A DNA stretch of 64,000 nt. Source: a virus (taxonomy: Duplodnaviria > Heunggongvirae > Uroviricota > Caudoviricetes). The position numbers were made by a program, and so were the translations under genes. Where the stretch lies: the IMG/VR virus record IMGVR_UViG_3300045051_000179, positions 47,051-111,050 of that record, one strand, 5' to 3'. How positions within the stretch are numbered: position 1 is the first letter of the stretch; the number at the start of each line of letters is the position of its first letter. Of this stretch, positions 26,912 through 62,649 are shown piece after piece. Under the pieces are notes generated by a model. That model saw only the letters and a program-made list of their open reading frames with translations. It ran no database searches and was not told the origin of the DNA.

Positions 26912-28614
26912 CATCACACGCTAGGATTTGGGTAACCACTGATCCGATCAACGTATCGGCTACAGAGGTCTTTACTTCGACAGGCACAGATGGCGCTCTC
27001 GGTGGCGTTGCCTACGATTCTACGACTACGATCTGGACGGCTGCTGCCGATGACACTGGTCGTATCTATCAGACTGCTGATCCATCTGGTACATGGGTAG
27101 CGCAGACTACCGTTACGGCACAGAATTCCTCCACGGTCACGGCCTCCGGGGGAACGACTGTCTCCGGTGGTAAGTCTGCCTCCCACATCCAGCAGGGTAA
27201 GACCCGTACGCCATTCACACTAGATGCTGTAATCGAGAAGACGACATCTGCGTCCTTTGCCGCAGATTCCTTGCTGCTCAAGCGCACGTCTTCTTCGCTC
27301 ACTGCTAATGCCACGATCAAGAAGACCCTAAGTGGATCATTCACGTCGAATGCAGTTCTATTTAAGGTCGCTACGGGATCGTTCAGTGCTGATAGTACGC
27401 TGTTTAAGACAGTCTCTAGTTCCATCACGGCAGATGCCTTCATTGTTGCCAACACTGGCGGCGGAACATTCACTGCCGATGCAGTTCTGCGCAAGGTTCA
27501 GACCGGATCGTTTGCTGCTGACGCTACGCTGCTCAAGTCGATCAGTGGCTTGTTTGCGGCCGATTCTACACTAAAGAAGACGCTGAGTGGTTCGCTTACC
27601 GGCGATGCATTGCTGCTAAAGGGCTTCAACTCTAGCGTCACCGCTGATGCGGCAATCAAGAAGACTCTAGCCGGGTCCGCAACTGCTGATTCTGTTCTTC
27701 TCAAGACGACATCAGGCTCCCTCTCGGCCAATGCCGACCTCAAGAAGACCCTGACCGGATCAATCACTTCTGATGCGGTGCTATTCAGGGTCCAGTCGGG
27801 TAGCGTAGTGGCTGATGCGGCCATCCTCAAGACAACATCAGGATCGTTCACGGCTGACGCAGAACTGGTAGCCCAAGTTGCCGGTACTGGATCATTCCGC
27901 GCCGACGCTGTATTGCTCAAGACCTTCACTCAGTCGTTCGTTGCAGATGCAGTTCTCCTAAAGACAGCCACATCCTCGTTCACGGCTGATGCCTTCCTCA
28001 ACACGAGAATTGTTGGCTCGATAACTGCTGATGCAGTCCTGTTCAAAACTCTGACAGGATCAATCACATCCGATAGTGTTCTGAAGAAAACTTTGGCGGG
28101 CTTCTTTACTGCTGATGCAGTCATTGTCGGCGCGACAACCAGAACGGGATCATTCTCCGCAGATGCAGTTCTACGAAAGACACTGAGCGGAGGCTTCACG
28201 GCTGACGCCATTCTTGTTCGCAGAACTGTCAGCAACATCACTGCTGATGCGGTTCTATTCAGATCGTTTACAGGCTCGATAACCGCCCATGCGGTATTGA
28301 AGTCATCCTTCGTGGGCTCATTCACTGCTGATGCACTGTTGCGCTTGCGAACAATGGGCTCGATTACGGCTGATGCTGCATTCCTGAGGGTTGTCCAAGG
28401 GTCATTCACCACAGACGCATCTATTGCCACCAGCCAGACTGGTCACTTTACTGCCGACGCATACATTGCACCTCGAAGTAGAGTGCATGTCAGCCAGACC
28501 CAATCAATCTTGATCCGGACAAGCCAAACTGCCTCTGTCCTGATCGCTTCTTCCTCGATCAAGACCTCGCAAACATCGTCGATCCTGATCACTACCTCAA
28601 TCACGGAGAGTTAA
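26908..28614 (+). CDS. Repeat-built fibre-like protein with about 28 copies of the same 15-residue repeat.
   Basis: A 568-aa protein. Its start overlaps the upstream stop codon (ATGA). It carries the same repeat family as the upstream gene, plus a C-terminal SQTxSxLI mini-repeat. Confidence 0.55.
   Translation: MTSHARIWVTTDPINVSATEVFTSTGTDGALGGVAYDSTTTIWTAAADDTGRIYQTADPSGTWVAQTTVTAQNSSTVTASGGTTVSGGKSASHIQQGKTRTPFTLDAVIEKTTSASFAADSLLLKRTSSSLTANATIKKTLSGSFTSNAVLFKVATGSFSADSTLFKTVSSSITADAFIVANTGGGTFTADAVLRKVQTGSFAADATLLKSISGLFAADSTLKKTLSGSLTGDALLLKGFNSSVTADAAIKKTLAGSATADSVLLKTTSGSLSANADLKKTLTGSITSDAVLFRVQSGSVVADAAILKTTSGSFTADAELVAQVAGTGSFRADAVLLKTFTQSFVADAVLLKTATSSFTADAFLNTRIVGSITADAVLFKTLTGSITSDSVLKKTLAGFFTADAVIVGATTRTGSFSADAVLRKTLSGGFTADAILVRRTVSNITADAVLFRSFTGSITAHAVLKSSFVGSFTADALLRLRTMGSITADAAFLRVVQGSFTTDASIATSQTGHFTADAYIAPRSRVHVSQTQSILIRTSQTASVLIASSSIKTSQTSSILITTSITES
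27210..28470 (+). repeat. In-frame 45-bp tandem repeats (about 28 copies).
   Basis: The units read FTADAVLLKTxxGSF and so on. Confidence 0.7.
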
Positions 28615-28970: not shown

Positions 28971-29783
28971 ATGTATAGGCCAGTACAACGTAAGCAGATA
29001 GGAGACCCATACACTACGCTTGATGCTTCGATATGCACGATGGAGTCGGGTGCAATGGCACTTGACTTCCATACCCTAGGCAGAGTGAAGTTGTGGGGCG
29101 GTCAGTTAGTCCAGCACTGTGGTCGTTCCTACTCTGACATCGCCGCCCACGGCACCAATCTCAATAACCTGCAAACAGCATGGAAGTATTACGGTTACAC
29201 GCTGACGATCAAGTCCGGTCACACGTGGGCTGATCTTCTGGCTGACCTCAAGGCTGGTCATGGCGTCGTTCTACAGGGTGACTATGATCAACTCTCCTAC
29301 GGCGCTAAGTGCCAGAAGAATTTCTACGGTGCTCATGGTATCTACCTGAACCCTGAATTCTACGGTACGGCTATCCTCATGATGGACCCGCTGTGTGGTT
29401 CTCCGAAGTGGGTCAGCAATGCTGAACTTCGTAATTTCGCAGAGAAGTTCGGTCGATTGGTATTCCCGTACTCTCAGAACTACCAGAAGATTTGCTATGC
29501 CATCACGGCTGCGCATCCGACAACTGCGCCTGCGCCGACACCGACGACACACAAGATCAATATTGCTGCCAATGCCAAGGTCTATCAGGCTAACCTGACA
29601 TCGACTGGCTGCATCAAGTCTTGGACTGTTACTACGTGGTATTCATCTGCTAGTTCCGCTCCTTGTCTCGCGGCGACCAAGAAGCCGGGATGCAGCAGCG
29701 GTAGCGCCACATTGGCCTACGTCACGAAGGGTGTCTTTGCTGGCAAGTGGGTCCGCATAGGCTCAGGAGTGACTTACGTCTAA
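28971..29783 (+). CDS. Two-domain protein; the N-terminal domain may be a Cys/His peptidase-like lysin. The TP-rich linker is PTTAPAPTPTT.
   Basis: The ribosome-binding site ggagg lies 7 nt upstream. Conserved Cys (DASICTMESG) and His (GAHGIYLN) residues are present. It is the last gene before the late terminator. Confidence 0.35.
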   Translation: MYRPVQRKQIGDPYTTLDASICTMESGAMALDFHTLGRVKLWGGQLVQHCGRSYSDIAAHGTNLNNLQTAWKYYGYTLTIKSGHTWADLLADLKAGHGVVLQGDYDQLSYGAKCQKNFYGAHGIYLNPEFYGTAILMMDPLCGSPKWVSNAELRNFAEKFGRLVFPYSQNYQKICYAITAAHPTTAPAPTPTTHKINIAANAKVYQANLTSTGCIKSWTVTTWYSSASSAPCLAATKKPGCSSGSATLAYVTKGVFAGKWVRIGSGVTYV

Positions 29784-33228: not shown

Positions 33229-34038
33229 TCATACTCCTAGTGTCAACTTTAAGACTTCTAATCCCTCGGGACCAGTGCAGATATCGCTCGTCTGTCCTGC
33301 GATTCTTGCCTCCCACGCCCGTGCCTGCAATTCAATCTGATCGACCATCGGCCCAATATCCTGTCTCACGCCCTGTGCCCAGACACGCTGATTGGTAAGG
33401 TCTGCGATGATGTTGTCCTCGCCCTGAAACTCCCACAGCCTTATACGACTAGAGGAGTCTGGTTCGAGGTAGCGAACCTCAAGAGTTCCTGTTAGATTCT
33501 TCTTTGGAACGGAGAAATCGTAGGCGGCTTGGTCATTCGAATCATACCTGAGGTTGATCCTCAAGTCCTTACCGAAGGTCCAGCGAAGTAGATCGATATC
33601 ATGGCTGGCATGATCAACGGCTACGCCTCCGTATTCTCCCTTCGGCTTTGGGCCAGCCCGTTCGATGCGCAGATCACCATTATACAGGCTCGCCCTGATG
33701 AATGCAAATGCAGGATTGAACCTGCCTAGGTAGCCGACAGATAGCGACACGCCAAGTTTTTCTGCGGTATCAACCATGACTTCTGCCTGCGCGATCTTAT
33801 GCGATAGTGGCTTTTCCACCAACACAGGCTTGCCCTCGGTGAGGAACATCAATGTTGGCATCCCGTGATAGGGTGTAGGAGTGGCTATTACCGCTGCATC
33901 TGATCGCAGAGTAACCTGATCGTAGTTGATCGGACCATCAATGATATCTAGGCGCTCTACGTCGTGGCCGAATGATTCGAGGATGTTGGCATGGAGTTTA
34001 CCCATCTTTCCCTTAGCCCCAATGACGGCGATTCTCAA
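33229..34038 (-). CDS. Gfo/Idh/MocA-family NAD(P)-dependent oxidoreductase; probably a sugar dehydrogenase.
   Basis: MRIAVIGAKGKMG matches the Rossmann fingerprint, and VLVEKPL matches the family motif. Confidence 0.7.
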   Translation of the reverse strand: MRIAVIGAKGKMGKLHANILESFGHDVERLDIIDGPINYDQVTLRSDAAVIATPTPYHGMPTLMFLTEGKPVLVEKPLSHKIAQAEVMVDTAEKLGVSLSVGYLGRFNPAFAFIRASLYNGDLRIERAGPKPKGEYGGVAVDHASHDIDLLRWTFGKDLRINLRYDSNDQAAYDFSVPKKNLTGTLEVRYLEPDSSSRIRLWEFQGEDNIIADLTNQRVWAQGVRQDIGPMVDQIELQARAWEARIAGQTSDICTGPEGLEVLKLTLGV

Positions 34039-34778
34039 TGACTTATCTCTCCCATTTTCGCATAAAGGGCATCAGACTTCACGATATCTGCTCCACCCTT
34101 GCTGTGGATTAAGTATGCCTGCTGTGGGGCTCTTGGCAGCCTATCCGATCCACGCAAAGTGCTCTCGTGCTTTCCGTCGAGCATCATCAATTCATGGAGC
34201 GGGCGAACCATCCATGAGCGCTTCGTCTTCCAAAGCCTCACATGCCAATGATACGGTTCCTCTGGCCCGAGTACGCCGTCCCACCAGTTCAATGACAGGT
34301 ATAGCCAGCCTAGAGCGGCAGGGTGCTTGGCCATTCCTGCGGCGCTGGTGACGAACTTCATATGTTCGAGCATCTGATATGAAGGTAGTTCATCTGGATC
34401 AAGCCCGAACGTCCATTCATATCGATGACGGGCTAGACCCTTATTGCGAGTCTTAGAGAAGTTTTCAAACTTCTCATGAACAACCCTAACAGGAGCCGTG
34501 TTCGGATAGTTCCACGACTCCATCTTCTCGATGTCTTCTTCTGATGAACCCGTATCAACGATAACAATCTCCTGTACATGAGGTAGTAGGAAGGTTGTAA
34601 GTGCCGCTAGACGATCTATCGGAGGATTGAGGACCATGAAGTGAACGGATATACCGGGTAGTAATTCCCGATCATCGTGTTCGAAATCATAGTCCTCAGT
34701 CGGGATCAAAAGTGATGGGTCGTCTGCCGAGTTGAGCGTGGCTAGGGGCTCCGGGCGTTCCGTCGAATCCAATGTCAT
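34035..34778 (-). CDS. GT-A fold glycosyltransferase, family GT2-like.
   Basis: ISVHFMVLNPP ... EIVIVDTGSSED has a DxD-type region. The start is uncertain and overlaps the upstream gene by 83 nt. Confidence 0.55.
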   Translation of the reverse strand: MTLDSTERPEPLATLNSADDPSLLIPTEDYDFEHDDRELLPGISVHFMVLNPPIDRLAALTTFLLPHVQEIVIVDTGSSEEDIEKMESWNYPNTAPVRVVHEKFENFSKTRNKGLARHRYEWTFGLDPDELPSYQMLEHMKFVTSAAGMAKHPAALGWLYLSLNWWDGVLGPEEPYHWHVRLWKTKRSWMVRPLHELMMLDGKHESTLRGSDRLPRAPQQAYLIHSKGGADIVKSDALYAKMGEISH

Positions 34779-35484
34779 GTTTCCTTCTAGCAGGAACTCC
34801 CATCACGGTAGTTCCTTCTTCAACATCTTTTGTCACGACTGATCCAGCCCCGACAATGGCATTCTTCCTAACGATTACTCCGGGCAAGAGAATCGCTCCA
34901 CCACCAATAGCGGCTCCGTTCTCGATTTTCGGCGCATACAGATTCGTGTCGTTCTGGTTCTTGCCCGCAAAGGAGTTATCATCCATGGTCAGAACACCAG
35001 TCGAAATGAATACATCATTGCCGATGATGACGCTGTTAGTTATGTGGCTAAGGTCGATCACCCTTGAGCGCCTGCCCATCCTGACAAGTTTTTGGAACGT
35101 GGAGTTCGAGCCAACGATAGAGTCATCGTAGACAACACAATCTTCTCGAATACGCACACCGTCCCCAACCAGCACCCTCCGACCAATATCAGTTCCAGTG
35201 TAGATAGTGACATTGGTTCCGATAACGGTATCCTCACGAACGATGGTATAGCCATCGGAATATTCCATGGGCTGGCCGGGGCGGTGCTTGGGGCGACCTA
35301 TCACGCTGTTATCGTGGATGGCAACGCGATCCGCAATGATCGTGTTCTCATGGATAACGACATTAGCCCCGATATAGAGTCCCTTCCCAAGCCTTACGGA
35401 CGGATGAATAACAGCCGAAGATGCGATCCATGAGCCCTTAATGCCCTTATCAGACCAAGGCATGTTACCTCCCTCAGACGACAT
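34696..35484 (-). CDS. Left-handed beta-helix (hexapeptide-repeat) acyl/acetyltransferase, sugar N-acetyltransferase-like.
   Basis: Repeated [LIV]-G-x-x-x-x hexapeptides run throughout (IGANVVIHENTIIADRVAIHDNSVIG ...). Confidence 0.7.
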   Translation of the reverse strand: MSSEGGNMPWSDKGIKGSWIASSAVIHPSVRLGKGLYIGANVVIHENTIIADRVAIHDNSVIGRPKHRPGQPMEYSDGYTIVREDTVIGTNVTIYTGTDIGRRVLVGDGVRIREDCVVYDDSIVGSNSTFQKLVRMGRRSRVIDLSHITNSVIIGNDVFISTGVLTMDDNSFAGKNQNDTNLYAPKIENGAAIGGGAILLPGVIVRKNAIVGAGSVVTKDVEEGTTVMGVPARRKHDIGFDGTPGAPSHAQLGRRPITFDPD

Positions 35485-36271
35485 TGACGATCTTCGTAGT
35501 ATCGATATTCTTGATGTAGACTAGCGTGCCATTCGAATCGGCGCTAGAGGTCTTGATCAGAATCACGCCCCAGTCCTTCGAGCCATTGACAAGGCCCAAG
35601 AACCAAGCATTGCCAGCGGTGCCACTGTAGTTCTTTAGTAGATCACCGTTGGTCCCACGGTAAAGCGGCATTCCATACGTGATCGGATACTTCTGACGAA
35701 TGGCTCCGTTGCTGAATGCAATGCCTTCTTCGTTAGTTGCATAAATCATCTTATCACCTGTTTCATAGAAGGTTCCCTCTGGAAAGACCCAAGAAATCAT
35801 ATCGTCCACGATGATGGAGACATACGATAGATGGCCAGTAGAACCGGGTGTCTTACCAATCCATCGGGCGGTTGCTCGATAGATGTCCCAGTAACCGTAA
35901 TGGTCGCGATACCAATCGAGGTACCTGATATAGTCAAGAGTGGCATTCTTGTAGTTATCGTACGTGGCATAGGTGTATCCGTTACCCGGAGAATACTTGC
36001 CTGTTGCGAGCACCGTCAGATTAGCATCCCAGAGCATGTTACCCCACGAGCCCGTGGTCTTGGCATAGCCACTAGTTCCGAACTGACTCTCGACGCGGAA
36101 CTGGGAGAGAGCAAACGTAGGATCGACACCGCCAGCCACGAATTGATCATAGATCAGGCTCGCTTCCGGTACTGCCGGTGAATTCTTGCTCTTAAGCAAC
36201 TGTGTAAACTTATCCTTCGAAATCCTCGGAGGAAAGTGTGTTGGGGAATTTTGACTGGGAACGTCTGTCAT
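35474..36271 (-). CDS. Endolysin, GH73 N-acetylglucosaminidase domain plus a C-terminal binding domain.
   Basis: FALSQFRVESQFGTS matches the GH73 catalytic Glu motif (AQAxLESGWG-like). Confidence 0.65.
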   Translation of the reverse strand: MTDVPSQNSPTHFPPRISKDKFTQLLKSKNSPAVPEASLIYDQFVAGGVDPTFALSQFRVESQFGTSGYAKTTGSWGNMLWDANLTVLATGKYSPGNGYTYATYDNYKNATLDYIRYLDWYRDHYGYWDIYRATARWIGKTPGSTGHLSYVSIIVDDMISWVFPEGTFYETGDKMIYATNEEGIAFSNGAIRQKYPITYGMPLYRGTNGDLLKNYSGTAGNAWFLGLVNGSKDWGVILIKTSSADSNGTLVYIKNIDTTKIVNVV

Positions 36272-36539: not shown

Positions 36540-37022
36540 TTACTTCGAGTCTGGTGCTGGCAGATCAACCGCAGTCTCAACCGGTGCATCCGTAGTATCA
36601 GATGCCGTGTCGGCAGTGACATCAGACGTATTGATCGTAGTATCCGTTGTGTTAACTACGACCGACGCATTGTCGCCAGCCGGGTTGAATTCTCGCAGAA
36701 CCGCAGACTCAACGGCAGATGACAACTGCTCGGCTGAAACCTTGAGACCAGCCTTTTCAAGAGAGACAGATGCGTAGTTCAGCGCAGCGACCTTCTTGTC
36801 GGCAACATAGCCTGCGATCTTGCCCTGCTCAGCGGCCTGAACAGCATCAGACACGATGGCCTGTAGCAATTCGAACTGCTTAGCGTTCGTATGAGCCTTG
36901 ATCCAAGACAAAAGATTCTTCGATGCAAGACCAACAACTCCGGTAATGACCAGCAATAGCGCATTGGCCAGTGCCTCATTCAGTCCGGATGACTGTAGAA
37001 TAGTAACCAAATCTGGCGTCAT
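36540..37022 (-). CDS. Holin (LL-H-like family).
   Basis: An N-terminal transmembrane helix (ALANALLLVITGVVGLAS) is followed by WIKAHTNAKQ ... AVESAV and an acidic tail. The gene is adjacent to the endolysin gene. Confidence 0.55.
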   Translation of the reverse strand: MTPDLVTILQSSGLNEALANALLLVITGVVGLASKNLLSWIKAHTNAKQFELLQAIVSDAVQAAEQGKIAGYVADKKVAALNYASVSLEKAGLKVSAEQLSSAVESAVLREFNPAGDNASVVVNTTDTTINTSDVTADTASDTTDAPVETAVDLPAPDSK

Positions 37023-46787: not shown

Positions 46788-48068
46788 TCAATCTAATTCC
46801 TCCCCCGACAGGTCTGATTCTTCGACCATTCGACCGGTTCGAAGATCAATGCGCATTGGGACATTCCTCTGCGCCTCTCCGTGACGGTTCTTCACTAACT
46901 CGCAGTCCAAGATATTCGGGCTGATATATCGGTCGCGCTTGAGGATGATGCCAATGTCGGCTGCATCTCTGATTGCGCCGCTGCCTTTGAACGTGTAGTA
47001 TCCGGACTGTTTGTTGGCAGGATCATTTTGAGCCTTCGCCTGTTCGTTGGAGAGTTGAGAAAGGGCGATGACCGTGCAGTCCAGTTCCTTTGCAAGATTC
47101 TGAAGTTCAAGGATCGTTGTGCGTGCATCTTTAACCTCATCTCCAGTGTCGTAAACATTCTGTACGAAGTCTACAATCATCAAGTCGAGACCCAAGGTCT
47201 CTTTCTGGTGAATCGCCTTACTGCGAATATCTGAGAGCCTGTAGGCGGTATCATAGATACGCAGCGAAGTTGTCGGTATCCATGCCTCTGCCCGTTGGAC
47301 TGCCGCTACTTCATCATGCCCAATGAAGGCTCGATTCTTGATTGTCCGCTGAGGAACGCCACTCTTGATAGACGCAAGCCTGATCAAGTAGTCTTCTTGT
47401 GTCATTTCCAGAGAGAAGACCTCGACCCACTTGCGAGTTTTCAGCGCGTGATAGATAATGTTCACGGCAAACAACGTCTTGCCTGTGCTAGAGAACCCAC
47501 CTACGACCCAGAGATGTCCGGGCTGTAGTCCACCTGTCAATTGCTGCAAGGTGGAACTAAATGGCAGTTTGATCGCATTGATTTCCTTGACATTCTGAAT
47601 ACGATAGAGAATATCGCTCGGATCAGGACTACGATCAGGGACAGGTAGAGTCATCCTTACGTTTCGCAAGAGTGATTCTGCCTCTGCCATCAGGCCGTCG
47701 CTGTCTGCTCGCTTCTCCTCTGCCAGCGTAATGAATGTCGCGCCTACCTGCTGTAATTTTCTTGCAGTGGAGAGGCCCTTAACGATCTTGGCACTCTCAA
47801 TTGCTTGCGGCACGGTGACGGGAATCTTGTTCAGTTTCTCAACGTACTCCATCGCGTCACCCTGTCCATCAAGGGCTTCGAGTAGCAATGGGAACTCAGG
47901 GGTCTTTCGGTCTCCGCTCACGCTGAGAATGGCCTTCATGATCTTCCGTGGTGTCGGTCCTTGGAAGTCATCGCTCCGAAGTTCTTCGCTATTGATAGCC
48001 CAGAATGAATCGGGGAATCGAATGATCCCCGCTAGGACTGTGTTTTCCGCCTCTATGTTCGCAAGCAT
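46788..48068 (-). CDS. dnaB: Replicative DNA helicase (DnaB family).
   Basis: GGFSSTGKT is a Walker A motif, LDLMIVDFVQ a Walker B region, and VIALSQLSNEQ the H4 motif. Confidence 0.85.
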   Translation of the reverse strand: MLANIEAENTVLAGIIRFPDSFWAINSEELRSDDFQGPTPRKIMKAILSVSGDRKTPEFPLLLEALDGQGDAMEYVEKLNKIPVTVPQAIESAKIVKGLSTARKLQQVGATFITLAEEKRADSDGLMAEAESLLRNVRMTLPVPDRSPDPSDILYRIQNVKEINAIKLPFSSTLQQLTGGLQPGHLWVVGGFSSTGKTLFAVNIIYHALKTRKWVEVFSLEMTQEDYLIRLASIKSGVPQRTIKNRAFIGHDEVAAVQRAEAWIPTTSLRIYDTAYRLSDIRSKAIHQKETLGLDLMIVDFVQNVYDTGDEVKDARTTILELQNLAKELDCTVIALSQLSNEQAKAQNDPANKQSGYYTFKGSGAIRDAADIGIILKRDRYISPNILDCELVKNRHGEAQRNVPMRIDLRTGRMVEESDLSGEELD

Positions 48069-48610
48069 TACTCTCCGTTGTCTTTTCTAATCTGCTTTAG
48101 ACCGTCTCTAATCTGCTGACGCATTGTTCTAACGCCCCATGTAAGGTGCACGGGAGGAGATGGCCATAGCCAGCGATCTGCAAGCACGAGTTGGGCCTGT
48201 GATTTCTTCTCAATCAGGTAGGGCTCGATCAATGTCAGGAAATCCAATGCTTCCTGCCCATTGAGACGCCACTTCCATTCCTTCTTGCTATCGGTTACGA
48301 CTACTCTACCATCGTTCATGACATCACCGGCAAAGTGGTTCTGCCCGCCCGAAGTAATGGAACCACCAAAGTGTTCTTGCATCCATTCATGCATCGGTCG
48401 GTAGTTGCCAGAGACGGCAATGGAGAGCGACAATTTCTTATCGACGCTGATCGTACCCTCGCCATCGAATAGACCAGCAGCGTAGGCGATATCAAATGCG
48501 GTGGGCCATGGCTTGACTCGATTAGCGGCCAAGTCGCTTCGGCCCTCAGCCAACGCGGCCTGAAATGCCGGATCATCCATGGCCTTATTCCAATGGTAAT
48601 CCCCTATCAT
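48068..48610 (-). CDS. LAGLIDADG-family protein; paralogue of the homing endonuclease at 22942.
   Basis: IAYAAGLFDGEGTISV ... FGGSI parallels LAYLGGFVDGEGCFSV ... FGGNI. Its start is coupled to the dnaB stop codon. Confidence 0.65.
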   Translation of the reverse strand: MIGDYHWNKAMDDPAFQAALAEGRSDLAANRVKPWPTAFDIAYAAGLFDGEGTISVDKKLSLSIAVSGNYRPMHEWMQEHFGGSITSGGQNHFAGDVMNDGRVVVTDSKKEWKWRLNGQEALDFLTLIEPYLIEKKSQAQLVLADRWLWPSPPVHLTWGVRTMRQQIRDGLKQIRKDNGE

Positions 48611-48840
48611 GACTTCCCCATATATACGGTATGAAGGGTTCTGACCTCAACATCGCTGTCGGTCAAATCCAAGTAACCAAAGTCCAGCCAGTCATCGATG
48701 CTCGATACGTACCTAGCCTTCGGGGTCGTGATCGTGATGAGTTCGAATCCCTGATCAACCAGTTCATCGAACTCAGTCACGGGTATATCAAAGGCAGCAG
48801 TTTCGGTGGCTGCCTTTATGAAGTGTGTCTTCTGTGTCAT
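48607..48840 (-). CDS. Hypothetical protein.
   Basis: A 77-aa acidic ORF. Confidence 0.35.
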   Translation of the reverse strand: MTQKTHFIKAATETAAFDIPVTEFDELVDQGFELITITTPKARYVSSIDDWLDFGYLDLTDSDVEVRTLHTVYMGKS

Positions 48841-49457
48841 GACGTTGCAAGGTCCCGATAGCGTGAAGCAAGGTCTCCTGCCTCAGCATAGAACCGAAGT
48901 TCATCACTGTGGACGCGAGTATCCTGCAAGGATCGATGATCCTTTGCATCGATGCTATACGTATCGCCACCCTTGATTTCAAAGATACGGCGTGGAGCGC
49001 CGACATCGAGAGCCCAATAGGTGATACGACGCGCTAGACGAGGTAGATACAGGTTGATGTACTGCCTATCGAAGTGCGTTACCCCGGACCCGCCGTAGGG
49101 AATGTGCGTGGAGTCCTCAGTGAACTGATCCAGCCACTTGGAAATCATGGCATCCGCGACGGCAGGATGAACGCCATTACCAGCCTGCAATTCAGCGAGC
49201 AGGCCGTTGGTCTCGTGCATCTTGCGTACGACATCCTTGCTCATGAGGGCCTTCATGCCCTTGGCGGATGGCTGGATGACAACCTCGAATGATCCTATCT
49301 CCTGTAGGGAAGGATTGTCGAGCATGATGAGTCCAACTTCAACAATCTCTGAGGCATCTGGATTCTGCTTTACGACTCCCGGTGCCGGATAGAGAACAAC
49401 CGACTCGTTGCCGGTCGTCTCAAGATCGAGCATCAGGATCAAACTGCCCTTAGGCAT
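48837..49457 (-). CDS. DnaQ-like 3'-5' exonuclease (DEDDh).
   Basis: LMLDLETTG matches the Exo I motif and HRSLQDTRVHSDEL the Exo III motif. Confidence 0.7.
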   Translation of the reverse strand: MPKGSLILMLDLETTGNESVVLYPAPGVVKQNPDASEIVEVGLIMLDNPSLQEIGSFEVVIQPSAKGMKALMSKDVVRKMHETNGLLAELQAGNGVHPAVADAMISKWLDQFTEDSTHIPYGGSGVTHFDRQYINLYLPRLARRITYWALDVGAPRRIFEIKGGDTYSIDAKDHRSLQDTRVHSDELRFYAEAGDLASRYRDLATS

Positions 49458-49612
49458 TAGGCTAGCCTCTCATCACCGTTAAGGTTCTCATCGAATAGGT
49501 ATCCTTCCACGGCATCCTTCGCCACGTCTGGGTCCTGAAAGATATCTTCGAATTCATCGGGTCGGTCAACGAGCCACTGGATGAATTCCAATAGTAGGTC
49601 CCTACTTGTCAT
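49457..49612 (-). CDS. Small acidic protein of 51 aa, not in the ORF track.
   Basis: Bounded by TAATG overlaps at both ends, and in frame between its neighbours. Confidence 0.3.
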   Translation of the reverse strand: MTSRDLLLEFIQWLVDRPDEFEDIFQDPDVAKDAVEGYLFDENLNGDERLA

Positions 49613-49785
49613 TACTTGCCTCCGTTCGTATAACCGGGAAATTCCTTGGCAATTGGGCAGACTACTGTGTAGTCTACGTAATCATCCTCGGGGTCGTTAT
49701 CATCCAGCGACTGCATCACGTGCTTCCCATTCAGTACGGCAATGCCTTCCTCGCAATAGATACAGTAGATCGTCTTAGTCTTCAT
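49612..49785 (-). CDS. Small Cys-containing protein of 57 aa, not in the ORF track.
   Basis: AAGGAG lies 4 nt upstream. Its start shares an ATGA overlap with the upstream gene. The peptide reads MKTKTIYCIYCEEG... Confidence 0.3.
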   Translation of the reverse strand: MKTKTIYCIYCEEGIAVLNGKHVMQSLDDNDPEDDYVDYTVVCPIAKEFPGYTNGGK

Positions 49786-50084
49786 TTGACTCCTTCTAGA
49801 AATTCAACAATGACATCTCCATGACAGGCGAGTGGCTTACAGAAACAGAGTAGCGTCTTACCTCGCAGGGGTTCTAGGAAGTCGGGATCGAGTTCTAGTT
49901 TTCCTCGCAGATACCATCGATACCAAGCGAGCACTTCATCCCGGCCCATAGGCAGACCATGTTCATCTAGGCTGCCGACAGCAATTGGATTCCCCCACTT
50001 GCCATCGAAGCCCCGCCCAGCCCTGCCAATGTAGACAGAGTTGGGCGGGATGCCATCATGAATATTAGCGACCGTTGTGGCCAA
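49782..50084 (-). CDS. DUF4326-like protein.
   Basis: Contains GNPF-type and LLCFCKPLACHGDV motifs. Confidence 0.5.
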   Translation of the reverse strand: MATTVANIHDGIPPNSVYIGRAGRGFDGKWGNPIAVGSLDEHGLPMGRDEVLAWYRWYLRGKLELDPDFLEPLRGKTLLCFCKPLACHGDVIVEFLEGVK

Positions 50085-50086
50085 GT

Positions 50087-51019
50087 CTACTTGGCGATCA
50101 ACGCATTCGGGTCGAGAATGAAACTCTGGCCCGATGGGAGAACGATGGTCTGGATGGTAGGAGCCAACTTCTGAATCAGTGTGTACTGAATCAGTTCAGG
50201 CGTGAGCGACTGCTGTAGCAAATCGTTGGCCTTGGCCTGAGCCTCGGCGGCGATGAGAACGGCATCAGCATTACCCTGAGCCGTGGTACGAATCTGGTCT
50301 GCCTGAATCTTCTTCTGGTTGAGAACCTGCTGCTCGGTGAGAACCTGCTGCTCTGCAACCTGCTTGGCCTCAATAGCCTGCTTGTACTGCTCAGAGAAAT
50401 CAATGTTCGAAATGGCCACGTCATCAACGACGATACCATAATCATCCAACTTGTCAGCCAACTTCTGAACTGCTTCCTTACGGATGTCTTCTCGGTGGGC
50501 AAGAACCTCACCGACGCCATACTTCGGGACAACTTCCTTGATGAGGTTGGCGAAGAACGGCCTGACAATCTTGTCAGCGTAATCGAGACCGACATTCTGG
50601 TAGAGGCGCACGACATTCTGCTGGTCGATATGAACGTTCAGGGTACCGGACATGATAACGTCCTGATATTCCCTTGATGCGGCAGCCAACTTATCGAAGT
50701 TGATACCCTGCACGCGAGTGTCAACGTCGGTGACGTTGTTCACGAAAGGCGGCAGGAAATTCAGACCCGGCTTGAGGGTCTCGGTCTGGACCTTACCGAA
50801 GGACGTAACGACGCCAACGTGGCCAGCCTCAATGGAATGCACGAACATTGTGGCGATCAGGAACCCGACGCCGAAGAATGCCAGCACGGCAGTCCCAGCA
50901 ATGGCGCTCGGACTTGCCCCCTTACCTGTTACGTCGCTCTTGGTCGTCGCCACAAACAAGAACAGAGCAATACCACCAATAGCAGCCAGCAGGCCCAAGC
51001 CTGTCAACAGAATCTCCAA
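50087..51019 (-). CDS. SPFH/band-7 (stomatin/prohibitin-like) membrane protein.
   Basis: An N-terminal transmembrane region is followed by a band-7 core (GHVGVVTSFGKVQTETLKPGLNF ...) and a Gln/Ala-rich coiled-coil tail. The start codon is TTG. Confidence 0.75.
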   Translation of the reverse strand: MEILLTGLGLLAAIGGIALFLFVATTKSDVTGKGASPSAIAGTAVLAFFGVGFLIATMFVHSIEAGHVGVVTSFGKVQTETLKPGLNFLPPFVNNVTDVDTRVQGINFDKLAAASREYQDVIMSGTLNVHIDQQNVVRLYQNVGLDYADKIVRPFFANLIKEVVPKYGVGEVLAHREDIRKEAVQKLADKLDDYGIVVDDVAISNIDFSEQYKQAIEAKQVAEQQVLTEQQVLNQKKIQADQIRTTAQGNADAVLIAAEAQAKANDLLQQSLTPELIQYTLIQKLAPTIQTIVLPSGQSFILDPNALIAK

Positions 51020-51020
51020 G

Positions 51021-51194
51021 TTAGTTCTTCCTCTCTTTCAGTTTCGCAAATACATAGGTTCCAGTAAACAGAATTGCGCCCAAGAACACCACGAGGATGA
51101 ATCCCTTCGGGTCTCGATCAAGAGTAATGAGCGCGGCGAGAACAATGATGACTGATACAATCCCTCCTAATATAGCACCGAATGACAACTTCAC
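51021..51194 (-). CDS. Small two-helix membrane protein of 57 aa (NfeD-like partner of the SPFH protein), not in the ORF track.
   Basis: AAGGAG lies 5 nt upstream of a GTG start. Its stop codon is 1 nt before the SPFH start. The peptide reads VKLSFGAILGGIVSVIIVLAALITL ... VVFLGAILFTGTYVFA. Confidence 0.45.
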   Translation of the reverse strand: MKLSFGAILGGIVSVIIVLAALITLDRDPKGFILVVFLGAILFTGTYVFAKLKERKN

Positions 51195-51400
51195 TTATTC
51201 TCCTTCTTGCTACGCTTGCTACCACGGCTGATCCAGAGCAACTGCAACCTGATAGCGGAAGCCATGAACTCTGTCATGTCCATCATTTCGTCATACGAAA
51301 CTGCGTTGTCATAGAGGAACTGACCACTAAGCGGATTGATCCCGTCTGCTAGTGCCTTGGCTGCCTTCTCTAGCAGTTCGATTTCACGTGTCTTGGTCAC
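51191..51400 (-). CDS. Hypothetical protein.
   Basis: A 69-aa ORF sharing a GTGA overlap with the downstream gene. Confidence 0.35.
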   Translation of the reverse strand: MTKTREIELLEKAAKALADGINPLSGQFLYDNAVSYDEMMDMTEFMASAIRLQLLWISRGSKRSKKENK

Positions 51401-51627
51401 TTCTTTTCCTCCGATGGAGTCAATGCAGAAATTCTGAGCGCTGTGTCATCCGGCCAAGGATCAGATTCGTCTCCAAATTCCCCCTTCTTGGTTAACCCCG
51501 CAACAGTATCAGCAAATCTCAAATCATTGAAAGAGCAGAGCGTGTCTGCTTTTGGGCTCGATGTCATGATGGCACTAGTAAATCGACTCAGACGAACAAA
51601 AGCCTCCGCGACACGATCATTGATCAT
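51397..51627 (-). CDS. Hypothetical protein.
   Basis: The internal start MINDR was chosen, giving an ATGA overlap with the lipoprotein gene. Confidence 0.3.
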   Translation of the reverse strand: MINDRVAEAFVRLSRFTSAIMTSSPKADTLCSFNDLRFADTVAGLTKKGEFGDESDPWPDDTALRISALTPSEEKK

Positions 51628-51836
51628 GGATTCACCGAGTCGCAACTCATGGCGACATATTGGCCCTGTCCAGTGCCACCTGCATAGAACAGGCAGTTCT
51701 CTCCGTGTGGCCCTTTGGCATAGGACCAAGAACCGTTGTCCTTAGTATCGCCACCAGAGGCGACCACTCCGGGGCCAGTGGTACAGCCAACTAGAAGGAG
51801 CGTCAAGATAATCAGTAGTCGTATCGGGCTAGCCAT
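51624..51836 (-). CDS. Lipoprotein (paralogue A).
   Basis: A signal peptide with the lipobox LLVGC, followed by CLFYAGG ... SC. Confidence 0.55.
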   Translation of the reverse strand: MASPIRLLIILTLLLVGCTTGPGVVASGGDTKDNGSWSYAKGPHGENCLFYAGGTGQGQYVAMSCDSVNP

Positions 51837-52128
51837 CAGACAGTTCCTTGGCCTCAGCCTCTAACCGCTGTGCCTCGGCCCGGAGAGTTGCCGCACGGTC
51901 GCGCTTCTCCTGTCGCTGCGTGGCGTAGGCCGTGACCTCATCGAGCGTCTCGGCAACGCCTTCGCGCCCGTTCTGGCCGCGCATGAAGGCGTCATCGAAG
52001 ACATCCTCCACGCCGACGTAATCGTGGAGCCATTCGTCGGCCAGATAGGTGTCCCCGACACGCAGGAGTTTCCCGTCGAGGTAGACCGCCGTCCATTCAC
52101 CGGCTGTGTGGAACTCAATTGCACTCAC
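51829..52128 (-). CDS. Hypothetical protein.
   Basis: A 99-aa ORF. Confidence 0.4.
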   Translation of the reverse strand: MSAIEFHTAGEWTAVYLDGKLLRVGDTYLADEWLHDYVGVEDVFDDAFMRGQNGREGVAETLDEVTAYATQRQEKRDRAATLRAEAQRLEAEAKELSDG

Positions 52129-52355
52129 TTAGATTCCTCCGTATGGCATGGGCATTCACATCGACCAGTTCGACCAAAAAACAATCGACCCGGATAGGCG
52201 CACTCTCTGTGCCTTGAGTAATCGCATGAAGCGCTGACACGTCCAGCAAGGACGTTCAACAATGAACGTAACGGGTCAGCCTGCATCCGGCGATCCTCAG
52301 CATACATCCAGAGACCGAGAAGAATGAAGCCGATGACCATGATAATCTCGCTCAT
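52125..52355 (-). CDS. Small membrane / Cys-rich protein.
   Basis: A transmembrane helix (IIMVIGFILLGLWMY) followed by the Cys cluster CECPC. Confidence 0.35.
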   Translation of the reverse strand: MSEIIMVIGFILLGLWMYAEDRRMQADPLRSLLNVLAGRVSASCDYSRHRECAYPGRLFFGRTGRCECPCHTEESK

Positions 52356-52807
52356 TCGGCAATCGCCTTACGAATACGTTCGCTGGCTTCCTCGGCCAAA
52401 CGGTAGCCTAACGCTATAGCATCTTCGCACACTGGGCACGTTCCGTGCCCCGGTACTCGTGCTGCCAGATGAACGAGCGCTGCCCGTGTCTCTGCAATCT
52501 CGCGATCTGAGGCCGACGACACGGGTAGGGCGGCATTGTAGACGCTAAGAAACAGTCGTCTCTTAGCATTGCTGATCGACCCTGCCTCTCGGATGGCAGC
52601 AACGGTCAGTTGTCCCTCTAGCACATCAAACCAGTCCAATGCCTCATCCAGAGCGTTAACATCCAATTCGGCTAGCCGAAGATCATAGTCATCTGGCGTG
52701 CGGATTGGCTCCCACGAACCACCGACACGCTCAAAGACAATCTGTGCGCCATCAGGCGCGTCTAAGTACGGATCAGTTACTCGAAATGGCCTAGGCCAGT
52801 CAGTCAC
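52352..52807 (-). CDS. Hypothetical protein.
   Basis: A 151-aa ORF. Confidence 0.4.
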   Translation of the reverse strand: MTDWPRPFRVTDPYLDAPDGAQIVFERVGGSWEPIRTPDDYDLRLAELDVNALDEALDWFDVLEGQLTVAAIREAGSISNAKRRLFLSVYNAALPVSSASDREIAETRAALVHLAARVPGHGTCPVCEDAIALGYRLAEEASERIRKAIAE

Positions 52808-53004
52808 TCAGATTCCTCCGTGCTTATATCTGCTTGGAATGCTGTTTCGCATTCAGGACAGACCAGTTCAATTGTCCCGCCTCCGAACAAGAGGGCAAAT
52901 GGGTCGGCCAACGTAGCGATGACCTCTTGTTCGCAGGAAGGACAAGAAAACGGTATCCCTATACTATCAGTCTCGGCCTCGATTGTCAAGTCCAGATCAG
53001 TCAT
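52804..53004 (-). CDS. Zinc-ribbon protein.
   Basis: Contains CPSCEQE ... CPECE. Confidence 0.4.
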   Translation of the reverse strand: MTDLDLTIEAETDSIGIPFSCPSCEQEVIATLADPFALLFGGGTIELVCPECETAFQADISTEESE

Positions 53005-53245
53005 CTTTGAACATCTCCATCTGCATCATCACGAGGATCGATAGGTCCCAACCCTGCTCATACCATCTTGGCTCTTGCATCTCTCCACTCTGCCAGCCTT
53101 CGGCATTTAAGAGGGTCGCTTCTTCTAGGAGTTCATTACGAAGGTCTTGAATCGCTTGAGCAATAGGATTAAAGGCATCAGCAGCCAAGACAAAGGCGCT
53201 CATGGGGACCTCTCTCTTACGAGCAATAGTCTTGCGCTCGGTCAT
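52997..53245 (-). CDS. Hypothetical protein.
   Basis: An 82-aa ORF. Confidence 0.3.
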   Translation of the reverse strand: MTERKTIARKREVPMSAFVLAADAFNPIAQAIQDLRNELLEEATLLNAEGWQSGEMQEPRWYEQGWDLSILVMMQMEMFKDD

Positions 53246-53960: not shown

Positions 53961-54220
53961 TCAGCATCCTTCAGCATTTCCTCGCTCATGGCAGCAAGTT
54001 CCTTGGCAAGGTCTACAGAGGGAATATACTGCTCGCTATCTGATTGCAGTATAGTCTCTAGGTTGTCAGCAAATCCCAGCCCGAAAGCAGGATTCTGTGC
54101 CGCCATCCTAAGAGCGACAATCAATACGACCAGATGGGCATCCTCTCCATTGAACTCTCTAGCAGAGTCATACATCGCAGTGATAACTGCTAACGTATTG
54201 AGCGCGATTTGCGGTGTCAC
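53957..54220 (-). CDS. Hypothetical protein.
   Basis: An 87-aa ORF. Confidence 0.35.
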   Translation of the reverse strand: MTPQIALNTLAVITAMYDSAREFNGEDAHLVVLIVALRMAAQNPAFGLGFADNLETILQSDSEQYIPSVDLAKELAAMSEEMLKDAE

Positions 54221-55068
54221 TTCTTTTTTGAAACCTCCCTAGGGGTGATACGATTAACTGATTCACCGGCAAGGAAGGCAGCCTTTGCTTCTTCTCCTGC
54301 AAGTTTGTAGCATACCGGACGAACTGGACAGTAATTGCATTGCCACAGGTCTGCTTCCGGTACATTGGAATAAGAGATAGGTTTTCCTGCTTTTCGCTGC
54401 GCATCGAGGACCATTAGCCTGTCATCAAGAAATGTTTCAACTTCCTCGTCAGACATTACCTCACTGACAATGCTCCTACCGTGCTTGGTGGTCCCGCCCT
54501 TCTTGAGGAAGATTTCCTTGTAGCCGTCCATCGCAAGGTATACGATTGATAGGTCAGTGAATCGAGCCTCAAGTCCTAGCAGCCATCGATAGATCGAAAC
54601 CTGCTGCCTGTGCGAGAGCCAAGCGGTATCGTAGAAAGGCAACTTAGCGGTGGTCTTCCAGTCTACGATCTTCTTCTTCTTGCCGGAACCGATCACTCGG
54701 ACAGTATCAGGCTGACCACTGATCTTGACGCCACGATGTTCTCGCTCATACCTGACTTCAGTATCAGACCTGTCGTCATCAACTGTTTCGAGCATGGCGT
54801 GAATGATACTTCCTCGAACGGCAGGCCAGTTATCGGCAGGAGAGATGTAGTAATCGTTATTGGCTTCTAGGAATACCTTGCGGGCGCATCCAAGAAGTTG
54901 CGTAACCGAGATAGAATCCGGGCGTTCCTTTTCTACCTGTACCCTAGTTAGAATAAGTATCTCATAGGGTGTGTTCGCCCATGAACCCTCCTGCTTGGCG
55001 ATCTTAAGTGCATCATCAAACAGAACGTTCTTGTTATTGGTATCGATCCAGCCGATTTGTGGACTCAA
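54217..55068 (-). CDS. Cas4/RecB-like PD-(D/E)XK exonuclease with a Cys cluster.
   Basis: IVDWKTT is a D/ExK motif and HRQQVSIY a QxxxY motif. An N-terminal Cys plus C-terminal CNYCPVRPVC form the cluster. Confidence 0.7.
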   Translation of the reverse strand: MSPQIGWIDTNNKNVLFDDALKIAKQEGSWANTPYEILILTRVQVEKERPDSISVTQLLGCARKVFLEANNDYYISPADNWPAVRGSIIHAMLETVDDDRSDTEVRYEREHRGVKISGQPDTVRVIGSGKKKKIVDWKTTAKLPFYDTAWLSHRQQVSIYRWLLGLEARFTDLSIVYLAMDGYKEIFLKKGGTTKHGRSIVSEVMSDEEVETFLDDRLMVLDAQRKAGKPISYSNVPEADLWQCNYCPVRPVCYKLAGEEAKAAFLAGESVNRITPREVSKKK

Positions 55069-56308: not shown

Positions 56309-57388
56309 TCATATTGTCTGCCTCACTCTAGTTGCGTTCTCGTGAACGGTATTCGGGGATACAAGGGTGAATTTACCCTTGAGTTGGAGTTCCTTGATGT
56401 TATGGGCTCCTACGTAGGACATTGAGGATCGCAATCCTGCCTGTAGATTGTGAAGAATGTCGGCTACCTTGCCCTTAGCGGGGACATATCCCTCAATGCC
56501 CTCAGGCACATATCGTTCACCATTGGACCCAAAGATGCTCTGGCCTCGATACTTTCTCCACTTGGTCCCGTCAGCAGCCACCACGATGCTCCCCGGACAT
56601 TCATCAGCCCCGGCAATGAGAGAGCCGATCATAACGACACTTGCGCCAGCAATAAGGGCTTTAGCAATATCTGCTGAAGACGTTACGCCACCGTCGCCAA
56701 TCAGCGGCACCCCAAGGTCAGCGTCAGCAACCTCAAGGATCGAGGATAGTTGAGGATAACCGACGCCAGCAACAGTTCGCGTGGTGCATACAGCGCCAGC
56801 CCCGATTCCTACCTTAATAGCATCTGCGCCAGCATCGACTAAATACTTAGCACCATCAGCAGTAGCAACATTGCCAGCGATGACCTTGAGGTTTGTGACG
56901 TTCTTGATGGCCTTGATCAACTTGGCAACCTTGACATGATGCCCTTGCGCCACATCGATGCATACACCCTCTAGGTAAGGCAACATCATTGTCGTAACTT
57001 CGACACTATCAAGGGCTGCGGCGATATTGCGAATGCCGACAGACATCCAAAACGGAACCTTAGCATCATTCAATTGATGCCTATCTCTGACTAGATCGGC
57101 ATGATCCCCGAACCTATGCAGGATTCCCATGCCACCAGCATTCCGCATAGCAATAACCATATCTGGCCCAGTGACATAATCCATGTTAGCACTGATGATC
57201 GGAATTGTCAACTTCCTACCAAGGAAGTCAACAGATGTATCAATCGTCTGGCGAGTTTCAATATCAGATAGACCCGGAACGATGAGAACGTCATTGAAGG
57301 TAAGGGCCGTGTGCGGGGAGTACCAAACATGACTTGGCTTGACGCTCATATGTGACCCCTTAATTTGCCGCAATCTGGACATGGACAT
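56309..57388 (-). CDS. GMP reductase / IMP-dehydrogenase-family enzyme (GuaC-like; no CBS insert).
   Basis: IISANMD ... CIDVAQGH ... VIAGNVAT ... [11 protein letters not shown] (catalytic Cys loop) ... [14 protein letters not shown] ... IGDGG ... MIGSLIAG. The true start is probably the internal MSVKPSH at 57349. Confidence 0.75.
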
Positions 57389-61320: not shown

Positions 61321-61590
61321 CTAGCCACTGTTAACGTAGCAATGAATGATTATTTCACCAGTAGCACCGAAGGCAGCAGTACCGACATATCGACCAGCGG
61401 GAACATCCTCACCAGTGAAGGCAAGGGTAATGACTCGCTGAATAGGCTCAGAAGACTGATCAGCCTCGGCCCAAATCGTAGGCGTACCGCTCTGGTTGGC
61501 GAACTTGATAGGACGCCACGTGGTAGGCAGTTCTACAACCTGCGTATAGGTCTGATCCAACGGGTACTTTAGGATGCGACGGTCAGCCAT
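61321..61590 (-). CDS. Hypothetical protein.
   Basis: An 89-aa ORF overlapping the 3' end of the integrase gene. Confidence 0.4.
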   Translation of the reverse strand: MADRRILKYPLDQTYTQVVELPTTWRPIKFANQSGTPTIWAEADQSSEPIQRVITLAFTGEDVPAGRYVGTAAFGATGEIIIHCYVNSG

Positions 61591-62477
61591 TCCGGTTCTT
61601 CCTCCTGCGTGTTTGCGTCTACTTTTGCGTCTTTTACGAGACGAATACCATTGCCTAGATTGCGAGGGTCAAGCCCACTAGCCGCGACCAAATCACCGAT
61701 GTCCATAGTCACGTACTGCTGGGTCGTACTAACGCTGGCATGACCAAGCAATTTCTGGACTGCGAAGACATTAGCCCCTGCCCTGATAAGTCGAGTTGCA
61801 TAGTGATGACGCAGGGAGTGAGGATGAATATTCACCTTCGCCTTGCGTGCCGCCATGTCAACGATCCCGTTTACGGTATCAAACGACAGACGGCCACCAT
61901 CAGGATTGTGGACAAGATAGTCGGACTCAGCGCCATTGTCCTTGTCAAATGCCTGCAAGGCATCAATCGTCTCCGGCAGGACAGGAACTATGCGCTGCTT
62001 GTTGCCCTTACCGGTTACTACCATGTAGTAGCCGTACTCTTTGGTCCACTTCATTGCGTCGGCGCGAAGATCAGAGACTTCGGATGCACGAAGGCCATTG
62101 AGCAGGAGCGAGACAACGGCTGCTTCTCTGGAAGTTTTGGTCGCAGCGATCAGGGCCTCGACATCCTCATCGGACGGTACCTCAGGGACATTTCCTGACG
62201 GGCGCTTTGGTGCCTTGACTGCCTCAAAGGGTGAATACTCGATCATCTTTCGGGTCGCCAGCCACCTATAAAACGTGCGGACAGTATTGAATCTCCGTGC
62301 CGCACCATTAGCCTTATAGGTCTTGGTCAACCATGCCTTGTATTCAGCAGCACCCTCGACCGTGAGAGGAAGGCCCTGCTCAAACCAAAGGCGCAAGTCA
62401 TTCCCATACGCACGCACAGTTTCAGGACTGTTCTGCGTATTCAAGAATGCTTGCGCCTCAGTAGCAAATGTGGTCAT
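61569..62477 (-). CDS. int: Tyrosine recombinase/integrase (XerC/D-like).
   Basis: ARG ... HPHSLRHHYATRLIRAGANVFAVQKLLGHASVSTTQQY contains the R-HxxR-Y catalytic signature. The start was chosen at MTTFATEAQAF, which gives the family's typical length. The ORF track extends it upstream to 62615. Confidence 0.85.
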   Translation of the reverse strand: MTTFATEAQAFLNTQNSPETVRAYGNDLRLWFEQGLPLTVEGAAEYKAWLTKTYKANGAARRFNTVRTFYRWLATRKMIEYSPFEAVKAPKRPSGNVPEVPSDEDVEALIAATKTSREAAVVSLLLNGLRASEVSDLRADAMKWTKEYGYYMVVTGKGNKQRIVPVLPETIDALQAFDKDNGAESDYLVHNPDGGRLSFDTVNGIVDMAARKAKVNIHPHSLRHHYATRLIRAGANVFAVQKLLGHASVSTTQQYVTMDIGDLVAASGLDPRNLGNGIRLVKDAKVDANTQEEEPEWLTVAS

Positions 62478-62649
62478 CGAGTACCCTTTGCTTGACCTCA
62501 TAGATAAGTTCTCTGGCTGCCTCTGGATGGCGGCGCACAAACCAATAGGCTCGTGCTGTAGACCTTCGGTCCTCGTACCACTTGGGTGCGAGATGCCTAA
62601 GGTTTCTCCACTCAAAGAGAAGATCGTTGAGGATGTCTTGCTCGTTCAT
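62458..62649 (-). CDS. Hypothetical small protein upstream of the integrase gene.
   Basis: A 63-aa ORF rich in Arg and Trp. Confidence 0.35.
   Translation of the reverse strand: MNEQDILNDLLFEWRNLRHLAPKWYEDRRSTARAYWFVRRHPEAARELIYEVKQRVLDDHICY

Follow-up and report, generated by a model that had tools for sequence, protein, structure and literature searches.

The SPFH/Band_7 scaffolds closest to the one described here belong to established complexes, those of HflK/C with FtsH and of prohibitins with m-AAA (PMC2636767; PDB 7wi3, 7vhp and 9cz1). Of the prokaryotic SPFH groups, three have been reported to pair with NfeD (SPFH1, stomatin-type; SPFH2, flotillin-type; and SPFH5), whereas SPFH3 (HflK/C) and SPFH4 (the prokaryotic prohibitins) are reported without such a partner (PMC2636767). 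Among phages, lambda has its lysis-lysogeny decision affected by HflK/C through FtsH, and an HflC-like role in lysogeny was speculated for a phage SPFH protein in one paper (PMC10269572); a 2006 paper pointed out SPFH open reading frames (ORFs) in T4-like phages (PMC1524935); and Kayvirus encodes a holin-like small membrane protein, MbpV, and an SPFH protein, MbpS, within one stretch of three genes that lies between lysK and tgl (PMC7150955). The stretch of tailed-phage DNA analysed here (the window: 64,000 nucleotides, positions 47,051 to 111,050 of IMG/VR record IMGVR_UViG_3300045051_000179) carries on its minus strand a gene for an SPFH protein of 310 amino acids (aa) at 50087..51019 and, directly upstream at 51021..51194, a gene for a 57-aa protein with two predicted membrane helices. 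The SPFH gene is an ordinary member of a class already well known from phages (PHROG 200); what is new is the small gene beside it, a real, narrowly distributed membrane partner gene that is not of the NfeD kind.

That the 310-aa protein belongs to SPFH/Band_7, and to its prokaryotic prohibitin branch, is practically certain. The Pfam profile Band_7 (PF01145), a search for which had been proposed as a check, matches residues 62-233 far above its cut-off (E=2.3e-37; 129.2 bits versus 23.6) over 171 of its 176 positions, and PHROG 200 matches residues 7-285 (E=3.2e-53, 182 bits). In a phmmer comparison with PDB sequences, PHB1/PHB2, human and other prohibitins, came first (2.5e-24), followed by HflK (8e-9), HflC (2e-6), stomatin (4e-6) and QmcA (4e-5); the equivalog cut-offs of NCBIfam for HflC (TIGR01932) and HflK (TIGR01933) are not reached (56.4 versus 134.4 bits for hflC and 48.9 versus 159.4 for hflK). 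An AlphaFold2 model (single chain, 30-sequence alignment, mean pLDDT 85) consists of helices at residues 2-30 and 37-58, an SPFH domain at residues 60-208, a long helix at residues 210-271, a short helix at residues 274-285, and a poorly predicted tail. Compared with the PDB by Foldseek, the model is most similar to PHB1/PHB2 cage subunits, next to HflK/C, and then to stomatin, erlin and QmcA, with a probability of 1.00 to cage subunits.

These domains can be placed on the minus strand as follows. The gene begins with a TTG codon that aligns with the starts of its orthologues in two other phages (GTG at locus L007, ATG at locus L006). The N-terminal membrane hairpin, with a short Lys-containing loop, is encoded at 50846..51016; the SPFH/Band_7 core (residues 62-233, the PF01145 envelope; a beta/alpha domain in the model) at 50321..50836; and the long helix of 62 residues at 50207..50392. 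By Foldseek this helix is aligned with the helices that build the wall in PHB and HflK/C structures, and so corresponds to the coiled-coil wall of an SPFH cage; its Gln+Ala content is 42%, versus 19% for the whole protein. The original prediction of a band-7 protein with a membrane anchor, a core and a long Gln/Ala tail therefore holds, except that the anchor, described as a single transmembrane segment, is made of two hydrophobic helices in both the model and the hydropathy profile (segments 1-27 and 38-63); an alignment shows two such segments in most of the relatives.

The prokaryotic prohibitins (SPFH4; Hinderhofer et al. 2009; cd03401) and PHB1/PHB2, the best matches in sequence and in fold, share with the phage protein an N-terminal anchor, an SPFH domain, a long helix, a short C-terminal tail and the lack of an NfeD neighbour. 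The phage protein differs from them in belonging to a phage-borne clade (60-80% identity), in having two N-terminal helices rather than one, and in the private 57-aa partner gene, which its cellular relatives lack. HflK and HflC of E. coli, which cage FtsH, are the second-best relatives in sequence and structure and have the same cage-forming architecture, but they are a K/C pair whereas the window has a single SPFH gene, and the scores are far below the equivalog cut-offs.

The gene for the 57-aa protein starts with GTG (51194-51192), which shares bases with the TGA that ends a 69-aa ORF upstream (GTGA), and is preceded at a 5-nucleotide spacing by a Shine-Dalgarno-like AAGGAG (51200..51205, minus strand) within the end of that ORF. 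The 57-aa ORF exactly fills the space between the flanking genes; hydropathy assigns approximately 48 of its 57 residues to two membrane helices, and it is the only one of about 34 small ORFs in the window with two transmembrane segments. An open frame of 57 codons is weak evidence when taken alone, so the status of the gene rests on conservation. Orthologues of the protein are present at L007 (58-60% identity) and L006 (41-43%), where the SPFH proteins are 80% and 77-82% identical to that of the window; the frame is open at nucleotide identities of only 63% and 50%, and the ATG starts of both orthologues align with the GTG of the window. The number of nonsynonymous changes per site (dN) is 0.35-0.60, synonymous sites are near or past saturation, and dN/dS is 0.26-0.35 where it can be computed. 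Codon position 2 has changed least, which fits a protein that must stay hydrophobic. The three sequences share 17 invariant columns, which include the inter-helix loop L-[DE]-R-[DN]-P-[KR]-G and the basic tail K-x-[KR]-E-R, part of a C-terminus with a net charge of +3. On this comparative evidence the ORF is very probably a real gene. Its two transmembrane segments, its AAGGAG site and its GTG start are thus as originally described, but it is not unannotated: public gene callers do call it (P0121; P0123, 'hypothetical protein').

The 57-aa protein is an orphan whose narrowly distributed family comprises, by sequence searches, three related phages so far. A word-indexed profile search of 5.8 billion proteins returned three clusters, all of 57 aa and all from phage-like contigs, and an exhaustive HMMER search of 1.84 billion representatives returned only the protein itself and two spurious matches to transmembrane repeats. 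No match was found by tblastn in 50,697 deposited phage records, by pattern scans of IMG/VR and JGI metagenome contigs, or in Pfam, PHROGs, NCBIfam and PADLOC.

The small gene and the SPFH gene have been inherited together as a two-gene module in three phages. In all three, the 57-aa homologue lies immediately upstream of the SPFH gene, with the junctions TAAcTTG, TAAGTG and TAATG; in the window, a single base (51020) separates the TAA of the small gene (51023-51021) from the TTG of the SPFH gene, which confirms the reported start 1 nucleotide past the stop. At L006, only three of the 17 genes tested have a homologue in the window. Two of them are the pair itself, and the third, a distant gene resembling IMPDH/FMN dehydrogenases (PHROG 9582), is all that the window otherwise has in common with this unrelated phage. 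The pair has been kept at L006, and all of its immediate neighbours are different. That the two proteins also act together is somewhat favoured by this pattern.

A purine-rich site (GAGAGGAAG, 51027..51035, minus strand) lies in the last codons of the 57-aa gene, 7 nucleotides before the TTG of the SPFH gene, and the K-E-R codons at this site are kept in L007 and L006 (AAAGAGAGG / AGAGAGAGA). The 3' end of the small gene (AAAGAGAGG), being both coding sequence and purine-rich site, may be under double constraint. The frame offset between the two genes is +1, 0 and -1 in the three phages; these differing offsets exclude a conserved, programmed readthrough or frameshift fusion of the pair, and they fit termination-reinitiation.

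Relatives of the SPFH protein are widespread. Searched with tblastn, 534 phage records of many hosts contain one, all below 60% identity and, among the 40 matches listed, at no more than 34%, under labels such as 'prohibitin family protein', 'lipoprotein', 'band 7 protein' and 'putative protease'. SPFH genes are accordingly among the commonest membrane-protein genes of phages, and a compact two-gene module would offer a tractable starting point for their study. Other members of PHROG 200, for example MbpS of Kayvirus and orf75 of Burkholderia phage CSP3, belong to the same profile family and in some cases adjoin a small membrane ORF, but by tblastn these small neighbours are unrelated in sequence to the 57-aa protein. 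The nearest relatives, at 60-80% identity, were gathered through look-ups of individual proteins and are located on viral-looking contigs with runs of small genes, individual contigs carrying a terminase (GpA_ATPase), HNH nuclease, ParB, RNA ligase or Acb2/Tad1-like gene. An identical protein is on record from a 111-kb metagenome contig (P0001). Single-protein scans of IMG/VR and JGI metagenomes found near-full-length relatives at 35% identity or less only. Cellular relatives at 40-52% identity occur in metagenome-assembled genomes of Chloroflexota (Limnocylindria) and Thermodesulfobacteriota, one of which (P0076, Chloroflexota) is publicly named 'prohibitin family protein'. At L149, a gene of the Acb2/Tad1-hairpin family (1198-1428), a family of anti-CBASS/Thoeris sponges, is situated approximately 1 kb upstream of the SPFH gene.

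Small membrane ORFs recur beside these genes. A small ORF with transmembrane character is directly upstream of the SPFH gene at 7 of 10 loci of the phage clade (60-80% identity), versus 6 of 73 cellular loci of Chloroflexota and Thermodesulfobacteriota, where the six small hydrophobic ORFs look like noise. The phage-clade ORFs fall into three or more forms that are unrelated to each other: the hairpin of 57 aa in the window, L007 and L006, a two-helix protein of 74-77 aa (L148 and L149), and a single helix of 36-42 aa (L147:2098-2208 and L152:2376-2504). The single-helix ORFs overlap the SPFH start by 4 nucleotides; the SPFH proteins of L147 and L152 have one transmembrane helix, and the short upstream ORF resembles the first helix of the two-helix forms, so that to judge from sequence the arrangement looks like a split membrane anchor. 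Farther afield, at 22 of 35 metagenome loci of distant SPFH relatives (24-35% identity, L100-L132), an ORF of 84-86 aa (for example L103:2643-2903, L105:2643-2897 and L130:2607-2861) directly precedes an SPFH gene with one transmembrane segment; some of the 35 contigs measure 135-735 kb and are therefore cellular. This ORF overlaps the SPFH start by 8 nucleotides at the four loci where the junction was read. Its product has an N-terminal transmembrane helix, a basic stretch and a zinc-ribbon-like tail (C-x2-H...C-P-x-C-Y), and represents a family of at least 1,352 clusters that has no Pfam domain, whose listed source names are all 'hypothetical protein', and one member of which is from a Gemmatimonadaceae metagenome-assembled genome. 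Deposited phages with a small membrane ORF beside an SPFH gene include Streptococcus phage phiST1 (58 aa, two transmembrane segments), Staphylococcus phage SA1 (86 aa, one segment) and Halorubrum virus Serpecor1 (44 aa).

This recurrence is suggestive, as an uncontrolled observation rather than an enrichment test, and hints that small membrane ORFs have often gone unrecognised in front of prohibitin-type SPFH genes. Partners of the prohibitin branch, being short and fast-diverging, may have been missed both in phages and in the large unnamed bacterial family. A bolder proposal, which is speculative and on balance unlikely, is that prohibitin-type scaffolds, described as partnerless, work with small, fast-evolving membrane peptides encoded directly upstream, in at least four unrelated forms (the three of the phage clade, of which the single helices would replace the first helix of the scaffold, and the widespread bacterial protein of 84-86 aa), and that the pair in this phage is a compact device for takeover of a patch of host membrane, for example by caging FtsH early in infection. 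Should none of this hold, the locus would be one more phage 'prohibitin family protein' beside an orphan membrane peptide.

The identity of both proteins and their joint inheritance are what the sequences show; a mode of assembly, a topology and a target can be proposed in addition. By homology to prohibitin and HflK/C, the SPFH domains and long helix would oligomerise into a ring or cage, enclosing a patch of the cytoplasmic membrane of the host. The acidic N-terminal tip and the Lys-containing loop would favour a topology in which the N-terminus is outside, the loop inside and the SPFH cage at the external face of the membrane, the arrangement of HflK/C and the prohibitins, and a weak charge signal would place both ends of the 57-aa hairpin in the cytoplasm and its conserved loop outside. 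The 57-aa protein, probably made in a fixed ratio to the scaffold by termination-reinitiation, would be a partner or client of the cage, located within the enclosed patch or adjacent to it. The module could then remodel the quality control of host membrane proteins early in infection, speculatively by caging or modulating FtsH in the manner of HflK/C and the prohibitins; its location in the early/replication arm, outside the lysis cassette, makes early remodelling of quality control the likeliest job. The explanation as a whole, a prohibitin-like cage with a co-assembled hairpin partner or client that acts early on quality control, has about an even chance of being correct, and FtsH or membrane-protein quality control as the specific target, argued by analogy, is possible but doubtful.

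Several considerations weigh against this explanation. The pairing of the two proteins is read from gene adjacency and joint inheritance, and the tight spacing is less informative than was assumed: all 16 successive junctions of the minus-strand genes in 48068-53245 are overlaps of 1-8 nucleotides or gaps of no more than 2, and because tight spacing is universal in this operon the 1-nucleotide gap is not specific evidence for the pair. Small membrane ORFs are, moreover, fairly common in phage genomes. The SPFH genes of L004, L150 and L151, within the phage clade, have no membrane ORF upstream, and the closest cellular relatives are stand-alone genes, which indicates that the scaffold does not need such a partner. 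The 57-aa family consists of three sequences, too few for an analysis of co-evolution. The proposed topology of the scaffold depends on a weak charge bias (+1 in the loop). Functions of phage SPFH proteins are so far putative, and according to a 2026 paper the reason for the occurrence of SPFH in phages 'remains unclear' (PMC13239085).

The rival explanation that survives best is that the 57-aa protein acts alone, as a holin/antiholin-like or superinfection-exclusion peptide, and is adjacent to the SPFH gene through shared block ancestry only. Class II holins, like many small phage exclusion proteins, generally have two transmembrane helices, a short loop and a basic C-terminus, and the two hydrophobic segments and charged C-terminus (net +3) of the 57-aa protein fit the class II holin pattern, which is a generic look with an N-in/C-in topology that is only predicted. 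A gene for a small lipoprotein, a class often used for exclusion, is located nearby and conserved in L007 and L147, and the holin-like MbpV of Kayvirus is encoded in the same three-gene stretch as MbpS (PMC7150955). However, the 57-aa protein has no holin-family match in Pfam or PHROGs, and the phage has a canonical holin candidate 13 kb away at 35.5-37.0 kb, where a Holin_LLH gene (36540-37022, minus strand; PF09682, E=1.5e-12) adjoins a glucosaminidase-like gene (35474-36271, minus strand; a weak match). These two genes are likely the lysis cassette of the phage, and their distance argues against a direct place of the pair in it. The roles first suggested for the pair, in holin timing, superinfection exclusion or protease-dependent defence, are conjectural. 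As a holin gene in particular, the 57-aa gene was rejected on the missing profile match, the Holin_LLH candidate elsewhere, and the replication and nuclease genes that surround it. Mere block ancestry also leaves unexplained why L006 has kept the pair amid entirely different neighbours. Independent action of the small protein is possible but not favoured.

The lipoprotein gene just mentioned (51624..51836, minus strand), two genes upstream of the pair, encodes a predicted protein of 70 aa with a lipobox (LLVGC) and two further Cys residues, for which profile and PADLOC scans found no family match. L007 and L147 each encode a homologue: that of L007 (59% identity) immediately precedes the small gene, and that of L147 (51%) precedes the SPFH gene by 1.7 kb. 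Membership of the lipoprotein as a third component in an envelope module is a weak possibility suggested by these positions. In L151 and L147, similar small lipoprotein ORFs follow the SPFH gene at a short distance.

A second rival derives the 57-aa protein from the N-terminal hairpin of the SPFH protein, by splitting or duplication, so that the small protein supplies or copies part of the scaffold's anchor; this is improbable. L147 and L152 show that anchor helices can be separately encoded in this clade, but the SPFH protein of the window already has both helices, an hhalign comparison of the 57-aa family with SPFH N-terminal hairpins gave a probability of 1%, and the variable frame offsets of the junction leave no conserved readthrough or frameshift fusion.

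More improbable still is that the pair is a phage version of the NfeD-SPFH operons, which it was at first said to mirror, with the 57-aa protein as a minimal NfeD whose role would be to nucleate or regulate the scaffold. The order of a small membrane protein gene and then an SPFH gene, tightly spaced, does recall operons of the YbbJ-QmcA type, PH1510-PH1511 and NfeD-FloA, in which a membrane protein gene immediately precedes the SPFH gene, and NfeD proteins likewise have membrane helices (PMC2636767). In contrast to these systems, the phage partner has no OB-fold, the phage SPFH protein belongs to a subgroup reported without NfeD, and QmcA is a distant relative of it (E=4e-5). The suggested profile search of the small protein gave no match to NfeD or an OB-fold (PF01957; Pfam, NCBIfam and PHROGs), and with approximately 48 of 57 residues in membrane helices the C-terminal OB-fold that defines NfeD cannot fit. 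The small protein has no relatives outside the three phages, a scan of six products of neighbouring ORFs in the window gave no NfeD match, and at 80 cellular SPFH loci, where flanking ORFs were listed and scored for hydropathy with no NfeD profile run, no recurrent small membrane ORF was found. NfeD is therefore rejected as the identity of the 57-aa protein, and a small membrane partner of an SPFH cage is a fair functional analogy to it. Equally improbable is that the 57-codon ORF is an untranslated chance frame, as its length, non-ATG start and lack of a database family might suggest, given a protein conserved in two divergent phages at a dN/dS of 0.26-0.35, a frame intact at 50% DNA identity, a well-spaced Shine-Dalgarno-like site, an exact fit between the flanking genes, and its being the sole two-helix protein among the small ORFs.

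The gene pair is set in the genome of what is probably a temperate siphophage. The portal gene (1107-2489), the tape measure protein gene (10221-14216), the DnaB-like helicase gene (46788-48068, minus strand), the integrase gene (61569-62615) and the holin gene identify the window as tailed-phage DNA and bear out the earlier statement that the pair is phage-encoded. No close DNA relative was found by megablast among the 50,697 deposited phage records. The pair sits in the early/replication arm, outside the lysis cassette, embedded in a long run of minus-strand genes that also includes the DnaB-like gene, an HNH endonuclease-like ORF (48068-48610; PHROG 5046, E=3e-19), an exonuclease-like protein gene (48837-49457), a DUF4326 protein gene (49782-50084) and a PD-(D/E)XK nuclease gene (54217-55068). 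A PADLOC scan matched no defence system to the SPFH gene, the 57-aa gene or their neighbours, and between 49 and 55.5 kb a scan found promoter-like sites about as often as expected by chance, and no minus-strand terminator.

The HNH ORF abuts the DnaB-like helicase gene and may encode a homing endonuclease; L007, which was sampled only near the end of its contig, matches this ORF at residues 40-90 alone. The plus-strand structural arm is closed by a Peptidase_C39-like ORF of 270 aa (28971-29783), apart from the Holin_LLH pair. It is preceded, after the tail genes, by a plus-strand ORF of 568 aa (26908-28614) whose translation reads almost entirely as short, degenerate copies of a repeat of the form S-[FL]-T-A-D-A-x-L-x-K-T. 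Genes for sugar modification and metabolism are dispersed at 33229-35484 (minus strand), 5448-6725 (plus strand) and 56309-57388 (minus strand), and comprise glycosyltransferases, a hexapeptide-repeat transferase and the IMPDH/FMN-dehydrogenase-like protein (PHROG 9582).

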